Under the pieces are notes generated by a model. That model saw only the letters and a list, made by a program, of their open reading frames with translations, had not been told where the DNA came from and did not search any database. From a phage: DNA of 64,000 nt. The translations under genes and the position numbers were made by a program. The stretch is taken from the NCBI GenBank assembly GCA_031520405.1, contig GCA_031520405.1_4842.1. One strand, 5' to 3'. Positions 2,121 to 9,769 of this stretch are shown here, piece after piece. The stretch's first letter is position 1, and each line of letters begins with the position of its first letter.

Positions 2121-2801
2121 ATGAGCAATATGTCAGAAAGGTTACTCGCCACACTTGATGCGGTGACTGCCCGAGACGAAGTTGGGAAGGAGGCAATGGA
2201 GGCTGTCGCCCCTCGTCCAGGTATTGACTTCGATGAAAATACAGGTGAATGGTTTGGTGAACGTCCGGAAGGGTATCAGCCGATTCCTGAACCGCCTTCA
2301 TTGGAGGATATTGCTTCCAAGGAATCCAAAGTACCTGAGTTTGCGGACACTGATGCTACAACGGATTACAAACGGATACGCGACACAACATATGCCATGC
2401 AAGAAGCCACAATGTTCATGATGGGACAAGCCGCTAAATTGGCTGCATCCACAGAAGCTCCGCGAGCATTTTCTGTTTTCCGTGAATTGGGTGAACTCAT
2501 GCGAGGTCTGAATAAAGACTTGATGGAAAACCAGAAAACCATCAAGGCGGTAACAGGTGATAAAGAACCACCTGTTGATGACACGACAGTGGATGTTACA
2601 ACTTCACCAGACGGAACAACAACAGTATCGGTTGGGAAAAAGGCGCGATCTTCTCGCGATTTATTGAAGACGATCGAAGATGCACGCCGCCGCGCTGAAG
2701 AAAGAGCACAAGCAAAGGCCGCACAACAACCAGAAGATGAAATCATTGATGGTGAAACAGTTGATGTGAAGGAAGAAGACGATGGCGTATCAGAAGCGTG
2801 A
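2121..2801 (+). CDS. terminase small subunit (gp16-like)
   Basis: ATG 2121 preceded by GGAGG (track start 2115 is TTG); central region resembles T4 gp16; overlaps start of large terminase. Confidence 0.6.
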   Translation: MSNMSERLLATLDAVTARDEVGKEAMEAVAPRPGIDFDENTGEWFGERPEGYQPIPEPPSLEDIASKESKVPEFADTDATTDYKRIRDTTYAMQEATMFMMGQAAKLAASTEAPRAFSVFRELGELMRGLNKDLMENQKTIKAVTGDKEPPVDDTTVDVTTSPDGTTTVSVGKKARSSRDLLKTIEDARRRAEERAQAKAAQQPEDEIIDGETVDVKEEDDGVSEA

Positions 2802-4992
2802 TATAGAATATGCCCCAATTAAAACGGGGTTCAAAATAGACGATGTGAAATTGCGTATGGACCAAACGTTCATGCGCAAACCTTCTGTGCGTGCTCCTCG
2901 AGTCGAGTTAATGCTGACAGATGAACAAGAAGACGAATTCGTTGAATGTTCTATGGATGCACACTACTTCGCCGCCAACTATTACAAGATAACCACGATC
3001 GATAAGGGCTTTATCCTTTTCGATATGCATGATTATCAGAAGCAGTTGTTCCACGACTTTCAGGACTATCGATTTAATGCGGTCGTCCAGGCTCGTCAGT
3101 CCGGAAAATGTGTAAAAGGCGACACGCTTGTCACAGTTTACGATACTCTCAGCCAAGAGGAGTTGCTCCTGACTATAGGGGAGCTTCACAGCCGCTTCGA
3201 GGACGTCAACCACGCTGTGCCGCTGAATACCATTGGCAACCATGACAAGTTCGTGGACAGCCGCTTCGGCAAACGTTACTTTGTACAATCCGATAGTGGC
3301 TGGGTTCCGGTTATCGCAGCGCATAAGACGAAGAAATATGCGGAATTCGTTATTGTCACCGTTACCGGAAGGCGAATTAACGTGGCTGATGAACATATGT
3401 TCTTCACTCCGGACATGAAGGAGATATTTGCCAAAGACCTGAATGCTGGGTCATACATCATGACGACAGAAGGTCCAGAAGAAATCCGTGAGATTTGGCA
3501 GACTGGTGAATATCACCATATGTACGATCTTCAGGTCAAATCTAGTGATCAACGTTATTACACGAATGGCTTTCTCAGTCATAACACGACCGTGGTGGCG
3601 GCGTTTCTTCTTTGGTATGCGATGTTCCATTCTGATAAGGAAATCGCAGTACTGGCAAACAAAGAGAAACAAGCGATAGAAATTCTTGACCGTATCAGAA
3701 AAGCATACCAAGACCTTCCATTCTTCCTTCAGCAGGGTTGTGAGAAGTTTGGTTCTACCCTGATAGAGTTTGAGAATGGTTCTAAGATATACGCTTATGC
3801 CACGTCTTCGGACTCCATCCGTGGTCGTTCTGTATCGCTCTTGTACGTTGACGAAGTCGCGTTTATCGAAAACGACTTTGAATTTTGGGAATCAACTTTC
3901 CCAGCCATTGCATCTGCCGATACATCACGCTGTATTTTGACAAGTACTCCGAAAGGCCAGCGAGGGTTGTTCTATGATATTGTCACCAAAGCAGATCCGC
4001 GCCATCCACAATACAACGACTTCCACCTAACTGAAGTCCCATGGTATAAGGTTCCGGCATATACCAAAGATCCAGATTGGGAAACCAAACAACGTGCCCG
4101 TCTGGGGGATGCTCGTTTCGATCAAGAATTTGGCATTAAGTTCCGTGGTTCCGTGGGTTCATTGATTCCGGCCAAATGCTTAGATAAAATGACGTCCAAG
4201 TTGTATCGGGAACCTAATGAATTCACCAAGATTTATAAGGAATACGACCCACAACGTCTCTACTTTGGGATTGCGGACACTGGGAAGGGGGTGGAAGGAG
4301 ATTATTCCGTCTTAACAATTCTGGATATAACTGAATATCCGCATGTCATAGCAGCCAAGTACAGGAATAATACGATACCTCCTATGATGTATGCATACAC
4401 GATAGCTGATATGTGCACCGAATACGGGGAATGTCCTGTCCTTGTTGAAACAAACAACGACGTCGGCGGTCAGGTTATTACAATTCTTTATCAAGAGATA
4501 GAATATCCAGAAATCATATTCACATCAACAGATAACAAAGGGACGGGGAAACGGATTGGTGGACGTAAACCGGAACCTGGTATCAATACCAACAGAAAAG
4601 TCCGATCTATCGGTTGTGCTAACCTGAAAGCGCTCATTGAGAAAGAAATGTTGGTGATAGAAGACCAGGACACGATAGATGAACTCAGTACATTTGTGTT
4701 CAAAGGCGCTCGGTATGAAGCCGATGACGGTTGTCACGATGACTGTGTCATGCCGTTGGTCTTATATTCATGGGCAGTAAAACAAGAATGGTTCAGTGAT
4801 TTGACATCTACAAGTATTTCTCAGGACATGAGAAACCGAATGTCTTCAACTGAATCTCAGCAGGTATTCCCATTTGGTGGTTTAGTCGTTGGAGACACCC
4901 CATCCGAAACTGAGCATTTGCCTGGTTTCGGGGGTATTCAAGTTTTCAACGAAATGTCAGGGATGACCATGGATGAGTGGGTTAAGAATTGA
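2782..4992 (+). CDS. terminase large subunit (gp17-like), intein-containing
   Basis: strong similarity to T4 gp17 around TTVVAAFL...YVDEVAF...TSTP; Walker A RQSGK|T interrupted by 159-aa insertion. Confidence 0.9.
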   Translation: MAYQKRDIEYAPIKTGFKIDDVKLRMDQTFMRKPSVRAPRVELMLTDEQEDEFVECSMDAHYFAANYYKITTIDKGFILFDMHDYQKQLFHDFQDYRFNAVVQARQSGKCVKGDTLVTVYDTLSQEELLLTIGELHSRFEDVNHAVPLNTIGNHDKFVDSRFGKRYFVQSDSGWVPVIAAHKTKKYAEFVIVTVTGRRINVADEHMFFTPDMKEIFAKDLNAGSYIMTTEGPEEIREIWQTGEYHHMYDLQVKSSDQRYYTNGFLSHNTTVVAAFLLWYAMFHSDKEIAVLANKEKQAIEILDRIRKAYQDLPFFLQQGCEKFGSTLIEFENGSKIYAYATSSDSIRGRSVSLLYVDEVAFIENDFEFWESTFPAIASADTSRCILTSTPKGQRGLFYDIVTKADPRHPQYNDFHLTEVPWYKVPAYTKDPDWETKQRARLGDARFDQEFGIKFRGSVGSLIPAKCLDKMTSKLYREPNEFTKIYKEYDPQRLYFGIADTGKGVEGDYSVLTILDITEYPHVIAAKYRNNTIPPMMYAYTIADMCTEYGECPVLVETNNDVGGQVITILYQEIEYPEIIFTSTDNKGTGKRIGGRKPEPGINTNRKVRSIGCANLKALIEKEMLVIEDQDTIDELSTFVFKGARYEADDGCHDDCVMPLVLYSWAVKQEWFSDLTSTSISQDMRNRMSSTESQQVFPFGGLVVGDTPSETEHLPGFGGIQVFNEMSGMTMDEWVKN
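3109..3585 (+). mobile_element. mini-intein (Hint domain only, no homing endonuclease domain) in terminase P-loop
   Basis: insert begins Cys (CVKGDTLV), ends His-Asn (FLSHN) followed by Thr +1; excision restores RQSGKT Walker A matching T4 SRQLGKT. Confidence 0.75.
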
Positions 4993-4993
4993 T

Positions 4994-5002
4994 CACTAAA
5001 TA
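4994..5002 (+). promoter_or_regulatory. putative late-promoter-like motif CACTAAATA upstream of tail sheath gene
   Basis: ACTAAATA-type box ~43 nt upstream of ATG 5045; same motif recurs upstream of other late genes. Confidence 0.3.
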
Positions 5003-5044
5003 TCTTTCAAATTGAGCGAAACTCTACCGAGAAGGAATGATATT

Positions 5045-6940
5045 ATGGCAACTCAAAGCTTCAGCGTTGCGCCGTCCGTTCAGTGGACTGAGCGTGATGC
5101 CACGCTTCAGACGTCCCCGTCCGTTGTTGTTCAGGGCGCGACCGTCGGCAAATTTCAATGGGGTGAAGTTGAACTTCCAGTGCTGGTGACTGGTGGTGAG
5201 ACAGGTTTGGTGAAGAAATTCTTCAAACCCAACGACAGTACTGCGACCGATTTTCTTGTAATCGCGGACTTTTTGTCTTACAGCTCTATGGCATGGGTGA
5301 CCCGTGTTGTTGGTCCTCTGGCCAAGAACTCTGTTACCAAAGGTCAGACAGCGATTGCGATCAAAAACAAACTGGATTTTGAAACAGCAAGTCCTTCGGC
5401 GTCCATCACTTGGACTGGTCGTTATCCAGGTTCCCTGGGTAATGATATTGCTATCAATGTTTGTGATGCTGCTGGATTCTCAACTTGGGAATTCCGTAAT
5501 AACTTTGCATACGCACCTCAGTCTGGTGAATTCCATGTAGTTGTCGTAGACAAAGTTGGTCGCATTACCGACTCTGCTGGCGCGGTCGGTCAGGTTGACC
5601 GTATCTCCGTTTCTGGTACGGCTACTGCTGCTGGCACCATCAGTGTGGCAGGTGAAGATATCGCATATCTGGATACTGATACTCCAGCCGATTTGGCAAC
5701 CAAAATCGGTACAGCACTAACTTCCCTGACAAGTGTTTATTCTTCTGTTGTCGTGAAGTCCAACACTGTCATCGTGACCCATAAAGCTATTGGTCCCCAG
5801 ACAGTTACTGCTATTGTTCCAGATGATAAGGGGCTGACTGCAACCGCCGTGATTACCACTGTTGGCGCATCTGGTTCTATTATCGAAAAATACGAACTCA
5901 TGCAGAACACACAGGGTTCCAAAAAGTCCGATGGCGCGAATGCGTACTTCAAAGATGTCATCAATGATACATCAAATTGGGTGTACACCTTCGCTACCGC
6001 TCTGGCCGCAGGTGTTGTTGAATTAGAAGGCGGCGTAGACGATTATAACATCAACCGCGTGGCAGCTATCCAAGTCTTGAACAATGCTGAAGCATATGAT
6101 GCGAAGCCAGTATTTGCGTACTGTGAAGAACTGATTGAGCAACAAGCATTGATCGACTTATCTACTGAGCGAAAAGATACGGTATCTTTCGTATCCCCGC
6201 TCCGTGATACGGTTGTTGGCAACCGTGGTCGTGAAATGGATGATGTCGTTGCTTGGCGTGAAAGCCTTGTTCGCGACTCTTCTTATTTCTTCATGGATGA
6301 TAACTGGGCATATGTGTACGACAAGTACAACGACAAAATGCGTTGGATTCCGGCTTGTGGTGGCACCGCAGGTGTTTGGGCGCGAAGCATTGAAATCGCG
6401 GGTATCTACAAATCTCCGGCGTTCCACAACCGTGGTAAATACAACAACTATAATCGAATGGCGTGGTCTGCTTCTTCTGATGAACGTGCTGTGTTGTACC
6501 GCAATCAGATCAACAGCATCGTAACCTTCTCCAATGAAGGCATCGTCCTGTATGGTGACAAAACTGGCCTGACCCGCCCGTCGGCGTTTGACCGCATCAA
6601 CGTTCGTGGTCTGTTCATCATGGCTGAGCAGAACATCGCCGCAATCGCCAAATACTATCTTGGTGAGAACAATGACGCGTTTACACGTGGTCTGTTCAGC
6701 AATGCGGTTCGTCCATATATTCGCCAGCTGGCAAATATGGGCGCGATTTACGATGGTAAAGTCAAATGTGATGAAGACAACAACACTGCTGATATCATTG
6801 CGGCAAACCAAATGGTTGCTGGTATCTGGTTGAAGCCTGAGTACAGCATAAATTGGGTGTATCTTGACTTTGCTGCAGTTCGACCAGATATGGAGTTCAG
6901 CGAAATCGAATCCGGTGGCGGCATCGTTGCTGCTTCATAA
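5045..6940 (+). CDS. tail sheath protein (gp18-like)
   Basis: GKFQWG and C-terminal GDKTG...FDRINVR similarity to T4 gp18; ATG 5045 with GAAGGAA RBS (track start 5012 is TTG). Confidence 0.9.
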   Translation: MATQSFSVAPSVQWTERDATLQTSPSVVVQGATVGKFQWGEVELPVLVTGGETGLVKKFFKPNDSTATDFLVIADFLSYSSMAWVTRVVGPLAKNSVTKGQTAIAIKNKLDFETASPSASITWTGRYPGSLGNDIAINVCDAAGFSTWEFRNNFAYAPQSGEFHVVVVDKVGRITDSAGAVGQVDRISVSGTATAAGTISVAGEDIAYLDTDTPADLATKIGTALTSLTSVYSSVVVKSNTVIVTHKAIGPQTVTAIVPDDKGLTATAVITTVGASGSIIEKYELMQNTQGSKKSDGANAYFKDVINDTSNWVYTFATALAAGVVELEGGVDDYNINRVAAIQVLNNAEAYDAKPVFAYCEELIEQQALIDLSTERKDTVSFVSPLRDTVVGNRGREMDDVVAWRESLVRDSSYFFMDDNWAYVYDKYNDKMRWIPACGGTAGVWARSIEIAGIYKSPAFHNRGKYNNYNRMAWSASSDERAVLYRNQINSIVTFSNEGIVLYGDKTGLTRPSAFDRINVRGLFIMAEQNIAAIAKYYLGENNDAFTRGLFSNAVRPYIRQLANMGAIYDGKVKCDEDNNTADIIAANQMVAGIWLKPEYSINWVYLDFAAVRPDMEFSEIESGGGIVAAS

Positions 6941-6946
6941 ATGACC

Positions 6947-6973
6947 AACCCCGCTTCGGCGGGGTTTTCCTTT
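6947..6973 (+). terminator. rho-independent terminator
   Basis: AACCCCGC-TTCG-GCGGGGTT hairpin followed by T-run. Confidence 0.7.
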
Positions 6974-6996: not shown

Positions 6997-7455
6997 ATGA
7001 TATACGCATACAAAATTGAAACGATAACTAATGGAAAGGTCTACATCGGTGTGACCAATGACCCACAACGAAGATATGATCAGCATTTTGCGAATGCTTT
7101 TCATCATGGAGTCCAAAGTGAATTGTATGATGCCATGCGTAAGTATGGAACATCTGGATTTACTTTCGTTGTAATTGCTCAGACCGATGAAGTCCATAAA
7201 TGGGAATTAGAGAAGCAACTCATCTCTCAATATAATTCTTATGAGATGGGTTACAACATGAATAAAGGCGGTAATGATGGAAGTCATATGCTGGGTAAAA
7301 CTGCAGCAAAATTGACATCCACAGGTGAACACATTGGTCTTGTTTCTCTCATAGATCCCCGTTGGGAATTGTGTGAAATCGAACCCGTTTTAAGCAATGT
7401 TGACCACGGATTTGATTTTTCTTCCATGAAGATTAAAAGATTGACGACTAATTAG
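6997..7455 (+). CDS. GIY-YIG endonuclease (putative free-standing homing endonuclease)
   Basis: N-terminal IYAYKIE...GKVYIGVT...RRYDQH, later Glu and Asn: GIY-YIG catalytic core; inserted between gp18 and gp19 after terminator. Confidence 0.65.
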   Translation: MIYAYKIETITNGKVYIGVTNDPQRRYDQHFANAFHHGVQSELYDAMRKYGTSGFTFVVIAQTDEVHKWELEKQLISQYNSYEMGYNMNKGGNDGSHMLGKTAAKLTSTGEHIGLVSLIDPRWELCEIEPVLSNVDHGFDFSSMKIKRLTTN

Positions 7456-7485
7456 AATTGTGTACTCTTATTTGGAGATATAAAA

Positions 7486-8019
7486 ATGGCGACAGTCAAT
7501 GAGTTTCGCGCAGCCATGTCACGAGGGGGCGGCGTACAACGCCAACACCGCTGGCGTGTGACTGTAAACTTTCCTTCTTTTGTTGCTGGTTCCGACACAA
7601 TTCGTGACGTGTCCTTGCTGGCTGTAACCACCAACACCCCAACAGGTCAGCTGGGCGAAATTCTGGTGCCCTGGGGTGGTCGTGAACTTCCGTTCCCAGG
7701 GGATCGTCGTTTCGAAGCGCTTCCTGTGACGTTCATTAACGTGGTGAACAACGCTCCATACAATGCTTTTGAAGTGTGGCAGCAATTCATCAACGGTAGT
7801 GAAAACAACCGCGCCAGCGCGAATCCAGATGATTATTTCCGTGATATCATCATGGAACTTCTGGACGCGAATGACAACGTGACTAAGACATGGACTTTAC
7901 AGGGCGGCTGGCCTCAAAACCTCGGCCAACTGGAACTCGATATGTCGGCAATGGACTCTTACACACAGTTCACTGTCGACTTGCGTTATTTCCAAGCCGT
8001 TTCTGACAAGTCATTGTAA
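7486..8019 (+). CDS. tail tube protein (gp19-like)
   Basis: C-terminal GGWPQNLGQLELD...FTVDLRYFQ resembles T4 gp19 GLWPTNVGELQLDW...EVTLALDYWE; GGAG RBS. Confidence 0.8.
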   Translation: MATVNEFRAAMSRGGGVQRQHRWRVTVNFPSFVAGSDTIRDVSLLAVTTNTPTGQLGEILVPWGGRELPFPGDRRFEALPVTFINVVNNAPYNAFEVWQQFINGSENNRASANPDDYFRDIIMELLDANDNVTKTWTLQGGWPQNLGQLELDMSAMDSYTQFTVDLRYFQAVSDKSL

Positions 8020-8086: not shown

Positions 8087-9769
8087 ATGGCTGGATACGG
8101 CAGAGGGTTCTTCGGTTTGTTTGGTGGTGGCGGTTTAGTCAATGCCAAAGTCGACACCGATAAGTTAGCCCAAAAACAAGATGAATTGTTGCTCACCAAG
8201 GCGACAGTTGTTGCTCTGGACGATGCTCAAGACGGTTCTATAATCCTTCAGGGCGGTGCAAACACCTACAACTATGTTGGCGTTGAGAGTGAACTTCTCA
8301 GCGTTAAAACAGTTGTGGAAGAATATCAGTCCATGGCCCAGCAGCCAGAAATACGCAAAGCTGTGGACATCATTGTTAATGACGTTGTCACATGTGAGGA
8401 AGACGAAACTCCGGTGACAGTCAATCTTGACAAAGTTGATGGTATTTCTGAATCAGTCAAAGAATCTATCACCGAATGTTTCAAAGAAGTGATTCATTTG
8501 ATGGATTTTGAAAATACGGCGTATCAAAAGATTCGGAAATGGTATGTAGATGGTCGACAAGCGTATCATGTGATTGTTGACCCAACGAATAAGAAGGGCG
8601 GGATCAAGAAATTGGTCATGCTGGATTCTCGTTGTATTCGTCCTGTGTACATCGTTGAAAAGGCAATGCGTGAAGGTGGTATAGAAGCGATCGAATCTGT
8701 AACGCTGAAATACTATTACAATCCGAATTATAATCGAAACCAATTCACTGGTCAATCAGGTACTTCTCAAAACTTCCAACCTTCACAACAAGAACTCGTG
8801 TTTGATGACGAAAGTATCGTTTATATCGATAGTGGTGAAGAACCATTGGCTAACGGTATTGTCCCAGGGCTTTTAAATCCTGCAATCCGCCCGTTGAACA
8901 ACTTGGTTACGACTGAAGACGCAACAGTAATTTATGCCATCACTCGCGCCCCTGAGAAACGCGCATTCTATCTTGACGTCGGTACTCTCGGCAAGAAATC
9001 TGCTGAAGAATACATGACCATGATGATGGGTAAATTCAAAAACCGCAACGCATATGACCGCACCACTGGTAAGATAACAGGTAATGCCCATCTTATGGGT
9101 ATTGCAGAGGATTATTGGTTGCCGCGCCGCGAAGGTCAGAATGCTACAGAGATTGCGACTGTTGGGGGTGGGAATCAATTGGGCGAAATGGATCACGTGA
9201 ACTATTTCCGTGAAAAACTCTATGATGCTCTAATGATCCCTAAGAGCCGCCTCCAAGAGGAAGGATCTATTAACATTGGGGGTTCCAACCTCGCGGAGAT
9301 TACACAGGAAGAGCTGCGTTTCAGCAAGTTCTGTGCTGGGTTACGTCGTCGTTACTCCCATTTCTTTATGGAGTTTTTACGTCGCCAATTAATTTTGAAA
9401 GGCGTGACTGACGAAAAAGATTGGAATGAAAAAATCAAGCCGTTTATTAAGTTTGAATTCACTTCTGATAGCTATATTCGTGAGCAACAAGAAAACGCCA
9501 TATTAAATGATCGCCTGGCTTCTCTGAACACTGTTGAGCCTTTTGTTGGTTCTATATTCTCCATAGACTACGTCATGAGAAATGTATTGCGTATGTCTGA
9601 TGAAGAAGTTAAAGAACAACAAACGAAGATCGCGGAAGAGAAGAAGAAAGGTCTCTATCCGAAGGTTCAAGCAGATGAAACTGGCAATTATAGCGGTTCA
9701 GATGTTAGTCCGTTGAAGTTTAAACCTGAGACTATCCCATTCTCCGGTTCAACAGACGATAGTATTTAA
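8087..9769 (+). CDS. portal vertex protein (gp20-like)
   Basis: similarity to T4 gp20 (ITRAPE...YLD, EDYWLPRREG, NYFR); GAGGA RBS. Confidence 0.9.
   Translation: MAGYGRGFFGLFGGGGLVNAKVDTDKLAQKQDELLLTKATVVALDDAQDGSIILQGGANTYNYVGVESELLSVKTVVEEYQSMAQQPEIRKAVDIIVNDVVTCEEDETPVTVNLDKVDGISESVKESITECFKEVIHLMDFENTAYQKIRKWYVDGRQAYHVIVDPTNKKGGIKKLVMLDSRCIRPVYIVEKAMREGGIEAIESVTLKYYYNPNYNRNQFTGQSGTSQNFQPSQQELVFDDESIVYIDSGEEPLANGIVPGLLNPAIRPLNNLVTTEDATVIYAITRAPEKRAFYLDVGTLGKKSAEEYMTMMMGKFKNRNAYDRTTGKITGNAHLMGIAEDYWLPRREGQNATEIATVGGGNQLGEMDHVNYFREKLYDALMIPKSRLQEEGSINIGGSNLAEITQEELRFSKFCAGLRRRYSHFFMEFLRRQLILKGVTDEKDWNEKIKPFIKFEFTSDSYIREQQENAILNDRLASLNTVEPFVGSIFSIDYVMRNVLRMSDEEVKEQQTKIAEEKKKGLYPKVQADETGNYSGSDVSPLKFKPETIPFSGSTDDSI

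Follow-up and report, generated by a model that had tools for sequence, protein, structure and literature searches.

What keeps a short GIY-YIG endonuclease gene in place where the tail sheath gene of a phage is followed by the tail tube gene, and does it still move, serve its carrier or decay there? The question is raised by a locus in the window (the whole stretch of 64,000 nucleotides of phage DNA analysed here, one strand, 5' to 3'), about which the original prediction had made several claims from the letters alone: that a free-standing gene of this kind lies just behind the sheath terminator, that its position and organisation are those of a homing endonuclease, that the protein may lack a DNA-binding domain, and that it could be a decaying or minimal nuclease. 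Two known types of enzyme are relevant here. I-TevI is an intron-encoded endonuclease of 245 aa with a zinc-finger linker, a minor-groove helix and a C-terminal helix-turn-helix. The Seg proteins of phage T4 are free-standing GIY-YIG endonucleases of ~200–225 aa with C-terminal DNA-binding regions, which drive intronless homing and marker exclusion and for several of which cleavage and homing have been demonstrated.

The endonuclease gene and its surroundings

The window comes from a Salmonella phage of the genus Kuttervirus (Ackermannviridae; ViI/CBA120 group), and the region is at least 99% identical at the DNA level to many Salmonella and Escherichia phages of that genus. In most of the near-identical Kuttervirus records the 152-aa gene is annotated as a GIY-YIG or homing endonuclease, and the Kuttervirus copies, found at the same gene position, share 94–100% protein identity with it. 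The gene is already known: its orthologue in phage CBA120, orf195 (PHROG 5123), which lies between gp18 and gp19 in RefSeq, is the same gene with no difference at the sequence level, and was published, as an annotation only, among two putative homing endonucleases and as a homolog of T4 segD (Kutter et al., 2011; PMC3184105). As a gene call, nothing is added here to that report of 2011 and to the annotations that well over a hundred GenBank records carry. The modest additions concern the loss of a domain, a truncated form that is apparently immobile next to full-length ones that are mobile, and a DPRW repeat that is not catalogued. No experimental work on the 152-aa protein or its orthologues was found in the papers searched, nor a description of domain loss, hot-spot turnover or selection pattern in the orf195 family, and on the Kuttervirus sheath-tube junction nothing was found past the genome papers of 2011 and 2012.

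The 152-aa ORF is a genuine GIY-YIG nuclease gene of the I-TevI/Seg type. Its product scores 45.1 bits against Pfam PF01541 over residues 2–87 (E 1.3e-11; cut-off 22.6) and matches PHROG 5123, "homing endonuclease with GIY-YIG motif", over its whole length (1e-93), and a PDB sequence search with E values up to 10 returned I-TevI catalytic domains only. An AlphaFold model built from 72 sequences, with pLDDT above 90 at residues 1–95, is matched by Foldseek to the I-TevI catalytic domain (1MK0/1LN0) with an E value of 1.5e-5, a TM score of 0.82–0.84 and an rmsd of ~2 Å, at a sequence identity of 25–26%. The catalytic residues Y5, Y16, R26, H30, E72 and N87 are invariant in the 72-sequence alignment and correspond to Y6, Y17, R27, H31, E75 and N90 of I-TevI, so that the protein has the Pfam score, the catalytic residues and the alpha/beta fold of the I-TevI domain by which the GIY-YIG superfamily is recognised. 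A chance ORF or a pseudogene is ruled out by the Pfam and PHROG scores and by the dN/dS values given below. An identity like that of T4 EndoII (DenA) was also considered and rejected, the PDB sequence search having found only I-TevI and EndoII being absent from the best 50 Foldseek matches. Proteins labelled SegD are among the tblastn matches of the gene (31–39% identity), and no paralogue of the junction endonucleases was found in the window by tblastn with five endonuclease types from the sheath-tube site.

Table 1. Features at and around the endonuclease gene (positions of the window)
Feature	Position	Strand	Evidence or remark
Tail sheath gene, gp18 type, left flank	5012..6940	+	Pfam Phage_sheath_1C, 1.4e-12
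Intrinsic-terminator-like hairpin AACCCCGCTTCGGCGGGGTT and T-rich run	6947..6966	+	G+C-rich, six bases after the sheath stop codon
Endonuclease ORF, 152 aa	6997..7455	+	ORF listing of the window; ATG start
GIY-YIG catalytic domain, I-TevI-like, codons 1–97	6997..7287	+	Pfam, model, alignments
DPRW repeat, single ~34-aa copy, codons 98–131	7288..7389	+	Model, pLDDT ~87
Low-confidence tail, codons 132–152	7390..7452	+	pLDDT 51–66; aligns with the NUMOD3-like helix region of relatives
Late-promoter-like motif ACTAATTAG	7447..7455	+	Overlaps the endonuclease stop codon; resembles ACTAAATA
Ribosome-binding site of the tube gene, GGAG	7474..7477		
Tail tube gene, gp19 type, right flank	7486..8019	+	Mainly GenBank annotation of near-identical records
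Portal gene	8087..9769		Downstream of the tube gene

The ORF listing, the Pfam and PHROG matches and the hairpin (Table 1) bear out the predicted arrangement of a free-standing gene between sheath and tube and behind a terminator. In the GenBank records of near-identical phages the sheath gene starts at an ATG at 5045, and the tube gene scores 25.0 bits against Pfam Phage_T4_gp19, under the cut-off of 28.2 bits. The hairpin is separated from the endonuclease ATG by a gap of 30 nt, and neither a ACTAAATA-type motif nor a sigma-70-like site was found between the terminator and this ATG; the Shine-Dalgarno sequence of the endonuclease gene is weak (GAG).

The late genes of the window are preceded by ACTAAATA or ACTAATTA, unlike the T4 late promoter consensus TATAAATA, which was tried and set aside (one match in 64 kb, away from the locus). 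Five copies of the octamer ACTAAATA are present on the + strand (at 745, 4995, 9776, 10994 and 50324; 1.8 copies expected in the window), each at most about 90 nt upstream of the start of a + strand ORF; among the genes so preceded are the sheath gene, a 56-aa ORF that follows the portal gene, and the gene behind the protease. ACTAATTAC is located before the portal gene, and in LIMEstone1 the equivalent upstream of the sheath gene, CTAAAT, is annotated as a putative late promoter. The motif ACTAATTAG is contained in a block, CTAATTAGAATTGTGTA, that is near-invariant in eight of the ten aligned junction types; in phiMAM1 and in the empty site of the distant contig L026 the variant ACTAAATAG stands in its place, and L026 diverges past it. 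These elements delimit the slot in which the gene lies. The sheath terminator hairpin is its left edge, and in the alignment the empty-site relatives have a hairpin at the equivalent place after the sheath gene. The right edge would be the tube late promoter; all the endonuclease ORFs of the sheath-tube site end inside the late-promoter-like block.

The sheath-tube junction as an endonuclease hot spot

The comparison of this junction among relatives, which had been proposed together with the original prediction, was run on 30 related loci from GenBank and IMG/VR, in which the sheath and tube genes were located and the content between them was listed (Table 2; "A-type" is the label for the 152-aa form of the gene at this junction, and B- and C-type those for its full-length relatives). 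Presence and absence were both found, as well as replacement, with empty sites in P46FS4 (78 nt) and L026 (80 nt), and the alternative occupants besides A-type are at least five endonuclease genes or tandems. The gene thus lies where a mobile element is expected, in an intergenic position between two conserved genes and with presence/absence polymorphism among relatives; the homing-type position and organisation read from the sequence are upheld by a junction that in relatives is empty or holds other endonucleases. The sheath-tube junction of the Ackermannviridae is a sharp-edged hot spot of homing endonucleases.

Table 2. Content of the sheath-tube junction in related phages
Junction length (nt)	Content	Phages or loci
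78–81	Empty	Agtrevirus P46FS4 (L019/L029), more distant 164-kb contig L026
548–561	A-type alone	Kuttervirus, Taipeivirus, Serratia phage 3M
787–817	Single full-length GIY-YIG gene, 230–237 aa	B-type: barely, ChubbyThor, L020; C-type: Menlow, BRM 13314
1233–1264	B-type and A-type in tandem	L009, L015, L022, L027
1375	262-aa GIY-YIG gene on the minus strand and A-type	PhaxI
903	Related minus-strand GIY-YIG gene, alone	Se-I
2110–2381	~600-aa Hef-like endonuclease, minus strand	LIMEstone1 (F-LimVIII; PMC3296691), Kuttervirus KE31
902	100-aa hypothetical ORF before the A-type gene	Magnus
1257	Small ORFs only, one apparently a fragment of a Hef-like gene	L018

In GenBank, where the counts of records include RefSeq/GenBank duplicates, a tube protein at least 80% identical to that of the window is found in 279 records, about 206 of which have an A-type gene at least 60% identical; presence in all relatives, which had been named beforehand as the finding that would speak against a homing endonuclease, is therefore not what is observed. 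When the tube protein is at least 99% identical (173 records), an A-type gene at least 90% identical is present in 153. The frequency of the A-type gene is ~74% of the related records and ~88% of the Kuttervirus records, and the B-type gene is found in about 49 GenBank records.

The empty junctions were considered as deletion scars. The ending "ALIRIV*" in P46FS4 was first taken as a remnant of the C-terminus of a full-length gene, a reading that was dropped, since the conserved block falls at the same place as the late-promoter-like motif, which stands before other late genes as well. A true remnant is present in LIMEstone1, in which ~37 codons of the C-terminus of a full-length gene survive.

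The full-length genes of this site appear to be currently mobile elements, which would insert beside the A-type gene or replace it. The C-type genes of Kuttervirus BRM 13314 and Taipeivirus Menlow are 99.1% identical (dN 0.004, dS 0.057), and the flanks of the same two phages have a dS of 1.21 for the sheath and 1.61 for the tube gene. The cassette is sharp-edged, with 95–100% identity to Menlow over positions 2439–3239 of locus L030 and 70–90% in its flanks. The full-length C-type enzyme has thus crossed between genera into the sheath-tube slot very recently, which the A-type has apparently not done. In relatives with an extra or different endonuclease, a sliding window gives a sheath gene that is ~100% identical over 5000–6350 and 77–96% identical over 6350–6950; the diverged 3' tract, ~600 nt long and found in genomes whose A-type gene is 98–99% identical, is the pattern expected from co-conversion by incoming endonucleases. 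The hot spot accounts for much of the small-scale mosaicism at the 3' end of the sheath gene among therapeutic Kuttervirus isolates.

As a separate observation, A-type-bearing lineages have been invaded by other endonucleases (tandems; BRM 13314 and "barely", in which the gene was replaced), and no site protection is obvious. Occupancy of the site as an immunity against other endonucleases was considered and is disfavoured by the tandems and the replacement in A-type-bearing lineages.

The locus has much in common with those of T4 SegA–G: the gene is free-standing, sits in an intergenic slot between conserved genes, is co-oriented with late genes and varies in occupancy among relatives, and diverged flanking tracts accompany endonuclease insertions. 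In contrast with the Seg proteins, the A-type protein is truncated, its nuclease activity is predicted, and it gives no sign of between-genus transfer. Turnover of homing endonucleases near essential phage genes has been described under the name of "HEG islands" (Barth et al., 2023; PMC10448857); in the parts of that article considered here, endonuclease classes are stacked beside essential structural genes, replacement occurs and recombination boundaries fall at nuclease genes, as at the present junction, whereas the genes concerned are mainly T5orf172 and HNH genes of ICP1-like vibriophages and the Ackermannviridae sheath-tube site is not described.

The short form, its selection and its descent

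The 152-aa protein aligns over its whole length with residues 1 to ~150 of the 230–237-aa relatives from the same site (51–57% identity to C-type and 36–40% to B-type), which run ~85 residues past its end. The C-type protein, modelled at pLDDT 89, has a helix at 139–150, with a weak NUMOD3 signal, and after it a folded domain at 163–229 with a helix-turn-helix, and the region that is missing from A-type is well folded (pLDDT 89–95); A-type, which ends at residue 152, has neither this helix nor this domain. Foldseek with the C-type model returned I-TevI for the catalytic part and I-HmuI (1U3E; E 8.8e-3, probability 0.99, 97 columns, residue range not given), and, as I-HmuI itself lacks a GIY-YIG domain, the latter match was assigned to the DNA-binding region. 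Against NCBIfam TIGR01453, "group I intron endonuclease", A-type scores 49.1 bits, below the cut-off of 56.05, and covers model positions 5–93 of 215, while the full-length relative P0010 passes with 57.6 bits. Two features of I-TevI/Seg-type enzymes, a full-length match to TIGR01453 and a C-terminal DNA-binding domain, are thus missing from the A-type protein, and the earlier suspicion of an absent DNA-binding domain proved correct, since it is the helix-turn-helix domain of the relatives that the short form does not have. In the alignment the three genera end the tail (residues 132–152) in three reading frames.

We infer that the A-type gene descends from a full-length endonuclease of the same site by a C-terminal deletion; that the domain was lost and not gained rests on parsimony, deletion being the parsimonious direction because the broader family is full-length. 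B-type (barely, ChubbyThor, phiMAM1) and C-type share with A-type the slot, the ending in the promoter block, and a catalytic domain followed by a DPRW module, with ~40% and 57% identity, respectively, over ~130–140 aa; they differ in having kept the NUMOD3-like helix and the folded helix-turn-helix, and C-type also in its recent transfer. With I-TevI, the A-type protein has in common the N-terminal GIY-YIG fold, with the equivalent Tyr, Tyr, Arg, His, Glu and Asn, and an organisation as "beads on a string" in which a linker comes after the catalytic domain. The differences are that A-type is free-standing, is 152 aa long, has a DPRW hairpin where I-TevI has its zinc finger, and is without a helix-turn-helix.

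Whether the short form is in decay can be read from its substitution pattern. Pairwise Nei-Gojobori estimates between Kuttervirus and Taipeivirus give for the A-type gene a dN of 0.12 and a dS of 1.3–1.4 (omega ~0.09), for the sheath gene 0.06 and 1.2–1.4 (omega ~0.05), and for the tube gene 0.03 and 1.2–1.6 (omega ~0.02); an omega of 0.12 is obtained for A-type in a less saturated pair, Klebsiella phage May (L016) and Serratia phage IME250 (L028). Constraint is seen in the catalytic part as well as in the tail, and the gene is intact, with 151–156 aa, in all of the 14 copies examined from three genera. The A-type gene is under purifying selection and is not decaying. Of the two words "decaying or minimal", the second therefore holds and the first does not, with a dN/dS of ~0.09–0.12 and catalytic residues invariant over three genera.

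That the gene is a dead, pseudogene-like relic, whose disabling mutations have merely not yet accumulated, is accordingly very improbable: dN/dS is 0.09–0.12 at a dS of 0.6–1.4, the six catalytic residues are invariant at 58–60% overall identity, and 14 of 14 copies are intact, where neutral decay at such divergence would have broken the frame. The points that agree with such a relic are the loss of one domain, the low-confidence tail with its three endings, the weak ribosome-binding site and the lack of a promoter of its own.

The descent of the gene was followed by dN, because the between-genus dS is near saturation (1.2–1.6); equal dS values are by themselves no proof that A-type and its flanks have diverged together, and the argument for vertical descent rests on the dN ratios. 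The ratio of A-type dN to sheath dN is 1.8–2.5 for every genus pair, including those with the Serratia lineage (58–60% identity), and this steadiness points to vertical descent between genera. Within Kuttervirus the picture is another one: the maximum dS is 0.15 for A-type, 0.6 for the sheath and 0.38 for the tube gene, and A-type exists as two alleles that are distributed independently of the flanks, as in L007 and L009, which differ by a dS of 0.011 in A-type versus 0.44 in the sheath and 0.27 in the tube gene. There may thus be exchange of the gene within the genus, by residual homing or by ordinary recombination.

It is at this point that active homing has to be weighed, i.e. that the catalytic domain and the DPRW module suffice to cut the endonuclease-free sheath-tube junction and that the gene has spread by double-strand-break repair in mixed infections. 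The near-identical alleles in diverged backgrounds (L007/L009) and the low divergence of the Kuttervirus A-type relative to its flanks speak for it, as do the intact active site under purifying selection, the empty sites of related genera, and a G+C content (0.381) below that of the flanking genes (0.482 and 0.513). Both the cutting and the spread are nevertheless quite unlikely, as A-type is without the helix-turn-helix that anchors I-TevI-type enzymes, its between-genus divergence scales with that of the flanks, in contrast to the clear recent transfer of the full-length relative (dS 0.057 versus 1.2–1.6 for the flanks), and no Kuttervirus with an empty junction was seen among the loci compared, so that no current target population is evident in the genus. 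To our knowledge, none of the Seg and I-Tev enzymes so far characterised is shorter than ~200 aa or lacks a DNA-binding domain, which also counts against homing by the short form.

The reading preferred here, with a probability of roughly 0.6, is that the A-type gene encodes an immobilised and selectively retained endonuclease, which has lost its helix-turn-helix anchor, is inherited vertically and is of advantage to its carrier. A full-length ancestor (~230 aa) at the same site would have lost the NUMOD3-like helix and the helix-turn-helix DNA-binding domain, so that a catalytic domain and a single DPRW hairpin module remain. Deprived of the DNA anchor, the A-type gene apparently no longer moves between phage lineages and would have been passed on vertically since before the split of Kuttervirus, Taipeivirus and the Serratia phage lineage (phiMAM1, 3M). 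As the gene has no late-promoter motif of its own and a weak Shine-Dalgarno sequence, probably little of the protein is made, from transcripts that read through the sheath terminator. It is probably still a metal-dependent nicking or cleaving enzyme, of low affinity or relaxed specificity, and the gene would be retained because it favours the carrier phage, or its own locus, in competition, for example with co-infecting relatives, and not because it still copies itself. A mobile full-length form and an immobile conserved homologue at one locus would amount to a natural experiment on the fate of an endonuclease after fixation, be it degeneration or retention, and their contrast bears on which domains are required for endonuclease mobility.

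The advantage to the carrier could also be of another kind, in that the A-type enzyme has been domesticated for a phage function other than homing, such as the oligomeric nicking of unmodified DNA of the host or of competitors; by analogy with T4 endonuclease II, the hypermodified thymidine DNA of the phage itself would be spared. T4 EndoII (136 aa) and Hpy188I are small stand-alone GIY-YIG enzymes that function as oligomers, and bases derived from 5-hmdU are present in ViI-like phages. The CBA120 genome paper (PMC3184105) discusses base substitution in this phage group. The long vertical retention under purifying selection, although the targeting domain is lost, would be accounted for by such a function, as would the frequency of the gene among related and Kuttervirus records given above, and ~10% of the best 150 relatives in a library of 1.84 billion proteins are no longer than 160 aa. 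Domestication, and with it the sparing of the phage's own DNA, is however unlikely: the searches described above gave no similarity to EndoII in sequence or fold, the gene is dispensable, having been lost or replaced in Kutterviruses "barely", Se-I, KE31 and BRM 13314, and it lies downstream of a terminator, in the midst of late structural genes and lacking an early promoter, which is a poor place for an enzyme of host shutoff.

The DPRW repeat

The module that follows the catalytic domain in the retained enzyme is a repeat of ~34 aa with the consensus GKxAAxLxSTGExIGxVSLxDPRWxxxEI, which the model folds into a beta-hairpin, then a short helix located at DPRW, and finally a strand. When 1.84 billion representative proteins were searched exhaustively with HMMER, the unit was found in tandem arrays of four to seven copies behind HNH and SegE-like nuclease domains (P0011, P0013, P0044, P0059 and P0123), and in some of these array proteins the repeats are the sole part that is not nuclease. 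This company suggests that the DPRW repeat is a nuclease-associated DNA-binding module. The copy in the 152-aa protein is net acidic (charge –2), with WELCEI where the consensus has WKTGEI, which argues against strong DNA binding by this copy.

No counterpart of the repeat was found in Pfam and NCBIfam scans or in PDB profile searches, and a search with a four-repeat query gave no match at E ≤ 0.001. If it does bind DNA, the repeat may constitute a new modular DNA-binding unit for nuclease engineering. The joint proposal that the A-type protein is a domesticated enzyme of benefit to the phage, with nicking of, for instance, unmodified DNA of the host or the DNA of co-infecting relatives, and that its DPRW unit is the first example of a DNA-binding repeat associated with nucleases and not described before, whose arrays occur in metagenomic proteins, is unlikely. 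The repeat also has a weak match to NCBIfam YlmC/YmxH, at 24 bits and below the cut-off of 44 bits.

Endonuclease genes and their remnants at the sheath-tube junction

Among the genes occupying the junction between the tail sheath and tail tube genes, a full-length GIY-YIG endonuclease gene (230 aa) shows 99.1% identity between the Kuttervirus BRM 13314 and the Taipeivirus Menlow, with a dS of 0.057, and the sheath and tube genes flanking it differ between the same two phages with a dS of 1.2-1.6. This divergence pattern points clearly to a recent inter-genus transfer of the gene into the same sheath-tube slot.

Relatives whose junction holds an extra endonuclease, or another one than the window's, have a sheath 3' end (window ~6350-6950) that is 77-96% identical to that of the window, and outside this terminal stretch of ~600 nt the same relatives are ~100% identical to it. 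The diverged patch looks like a co-conversion tract, and it may hold the cleavage sites of those extra or different endonucleases.

Other loci appear to document further turnover at this site. In LIMEstone1, an unannotated remnant codes for the final ~37 residues of a full-length GIY-YIG endonuclease (...INSHIDSGPIPEVGIYQRKRATDLRLKTTGWQLIRIV*), and an earlier resident was apparently displaced by F-LimVIII, the Hef-like endonuclease of this phage. In PhaxI, the sheath gene is separated from the 152-aa gene by a 262-aa ORF; the match of this ORF to the Pfam GIY-YIG model (E 0.0066, 17.2 bits) falls below the cut-off of 22.6, the equivalent minus-strand ORF of two identically arranged loci (L010 and L014) matches the 152-aa protein with 32% identity in tblastn, and the PhaxI ORF is similar in size and position to the 264-aa gene of the Kuttervirus Se-I, which passes the Pfam cut-off. 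The PhaxI ORF tentatively looks like another GIY-YIG endonuclease, encoded on the opposite strand. Some endonuclease cassettes are accompanied by small ORFs, one of 125-127 aa (MKRRNYIMTKTEINAILKEIGL...) and one of 100 aa (MKSFSQFLAEAGLKGD...), which had no match in Pfam.

Two records with 99-100% identity to Salmonella Kutterviruses in this region, OR844942.1 ("Enterococcus phage Efm 3-10") and MN871475.1 ("Pseudomonas phage Pa-sanjiao"), probably bear mistaken host labels or are contaminated.

Features in the window and in related sheath-tube loci (L, locus-own coordinates)
Feature	Location	Strand	Remarks
230-aa GIY-YIG endonuclease gene, full-length	L030 2501-3193		Salmonella phage BRM 13314
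230-aa GIY-YIG endonuclease gene, full-length	L017 4284-4973		Klebsiella phage Menlow
Endonuclease remnant	L003 ~4401-4517		Dickeya phage LIMEstone1, between F-LimVIII and tube gene
262-aa ORF	L001 2469-3257	minus	Escherichia phage PhaxI, AEW24400.1 "hypothetical protein"
Small cassette-associated ORFs	L004 2235-2618; L018 4202-4579; L006 5483-5785
DPRW repeat, ~34 aa	window 7288-7389	+	residues 98-131 of 152-aa endonuclease
Large terminase gene	window 2782-4992	+
Terminase mini-intein	window 3109-3585	+	159 aa, residues 110-268
ACTAAATA octamer	window 745, 4995, 9776, 10994, 50324	+
ACTAATTAG variant	window 7447	+
ACTAATTAC variant	window 8054	+

The DPRW repeat and the terminase intein

The 152-aa endonuclease contains one "DPRW" repeat (consensus GKxAAxLxSTGExLGxVSxxDPRWxTGEI), which is found in tandem arrays of 4-7 copies, C-terminal to HNH and SegE-like nuclease domains, in metagenomic proteins (P0011, P0013, P0044, P0059 and P0123). 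The repeat had no match in Pfam, NCBIfam or PDB, and may represent an uncatalogued nuclease-associated DNA-binding module.

In the large terminase subunit, the ATPase P-loop region is interrupted by a mini-intein with the borders ...QSGK/CVKGDTL...FLSHN/TTVV...; its Pfam Intein_splicing match (E 6.8e-7) is below the Pfam cut-off. The annotation of Klebsiella phage Magnus also names this terminase feature an intein.

A motif resembling a late promoter

According to the 2011 CBA120 paper (PMC3184105), no late promoter had been identified for ViI-like phages. On the + strand of the window, the motif ACTAA(A/T)TA is followed by an ORF start within ~90 nt downstream at every site listed in the table, and the exact octamer ACTAAATA occurs in 5 copies against 1.8 expected, a number reached in 2 of 100 shuffles; the T4 late promoter consensus TATAAATA is present in a single copy. 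ACTAA(A/T)TA is a late-promoter-like motif, the equivalent of which, CTAAAT, is included in the LIMEstone1 annotation.
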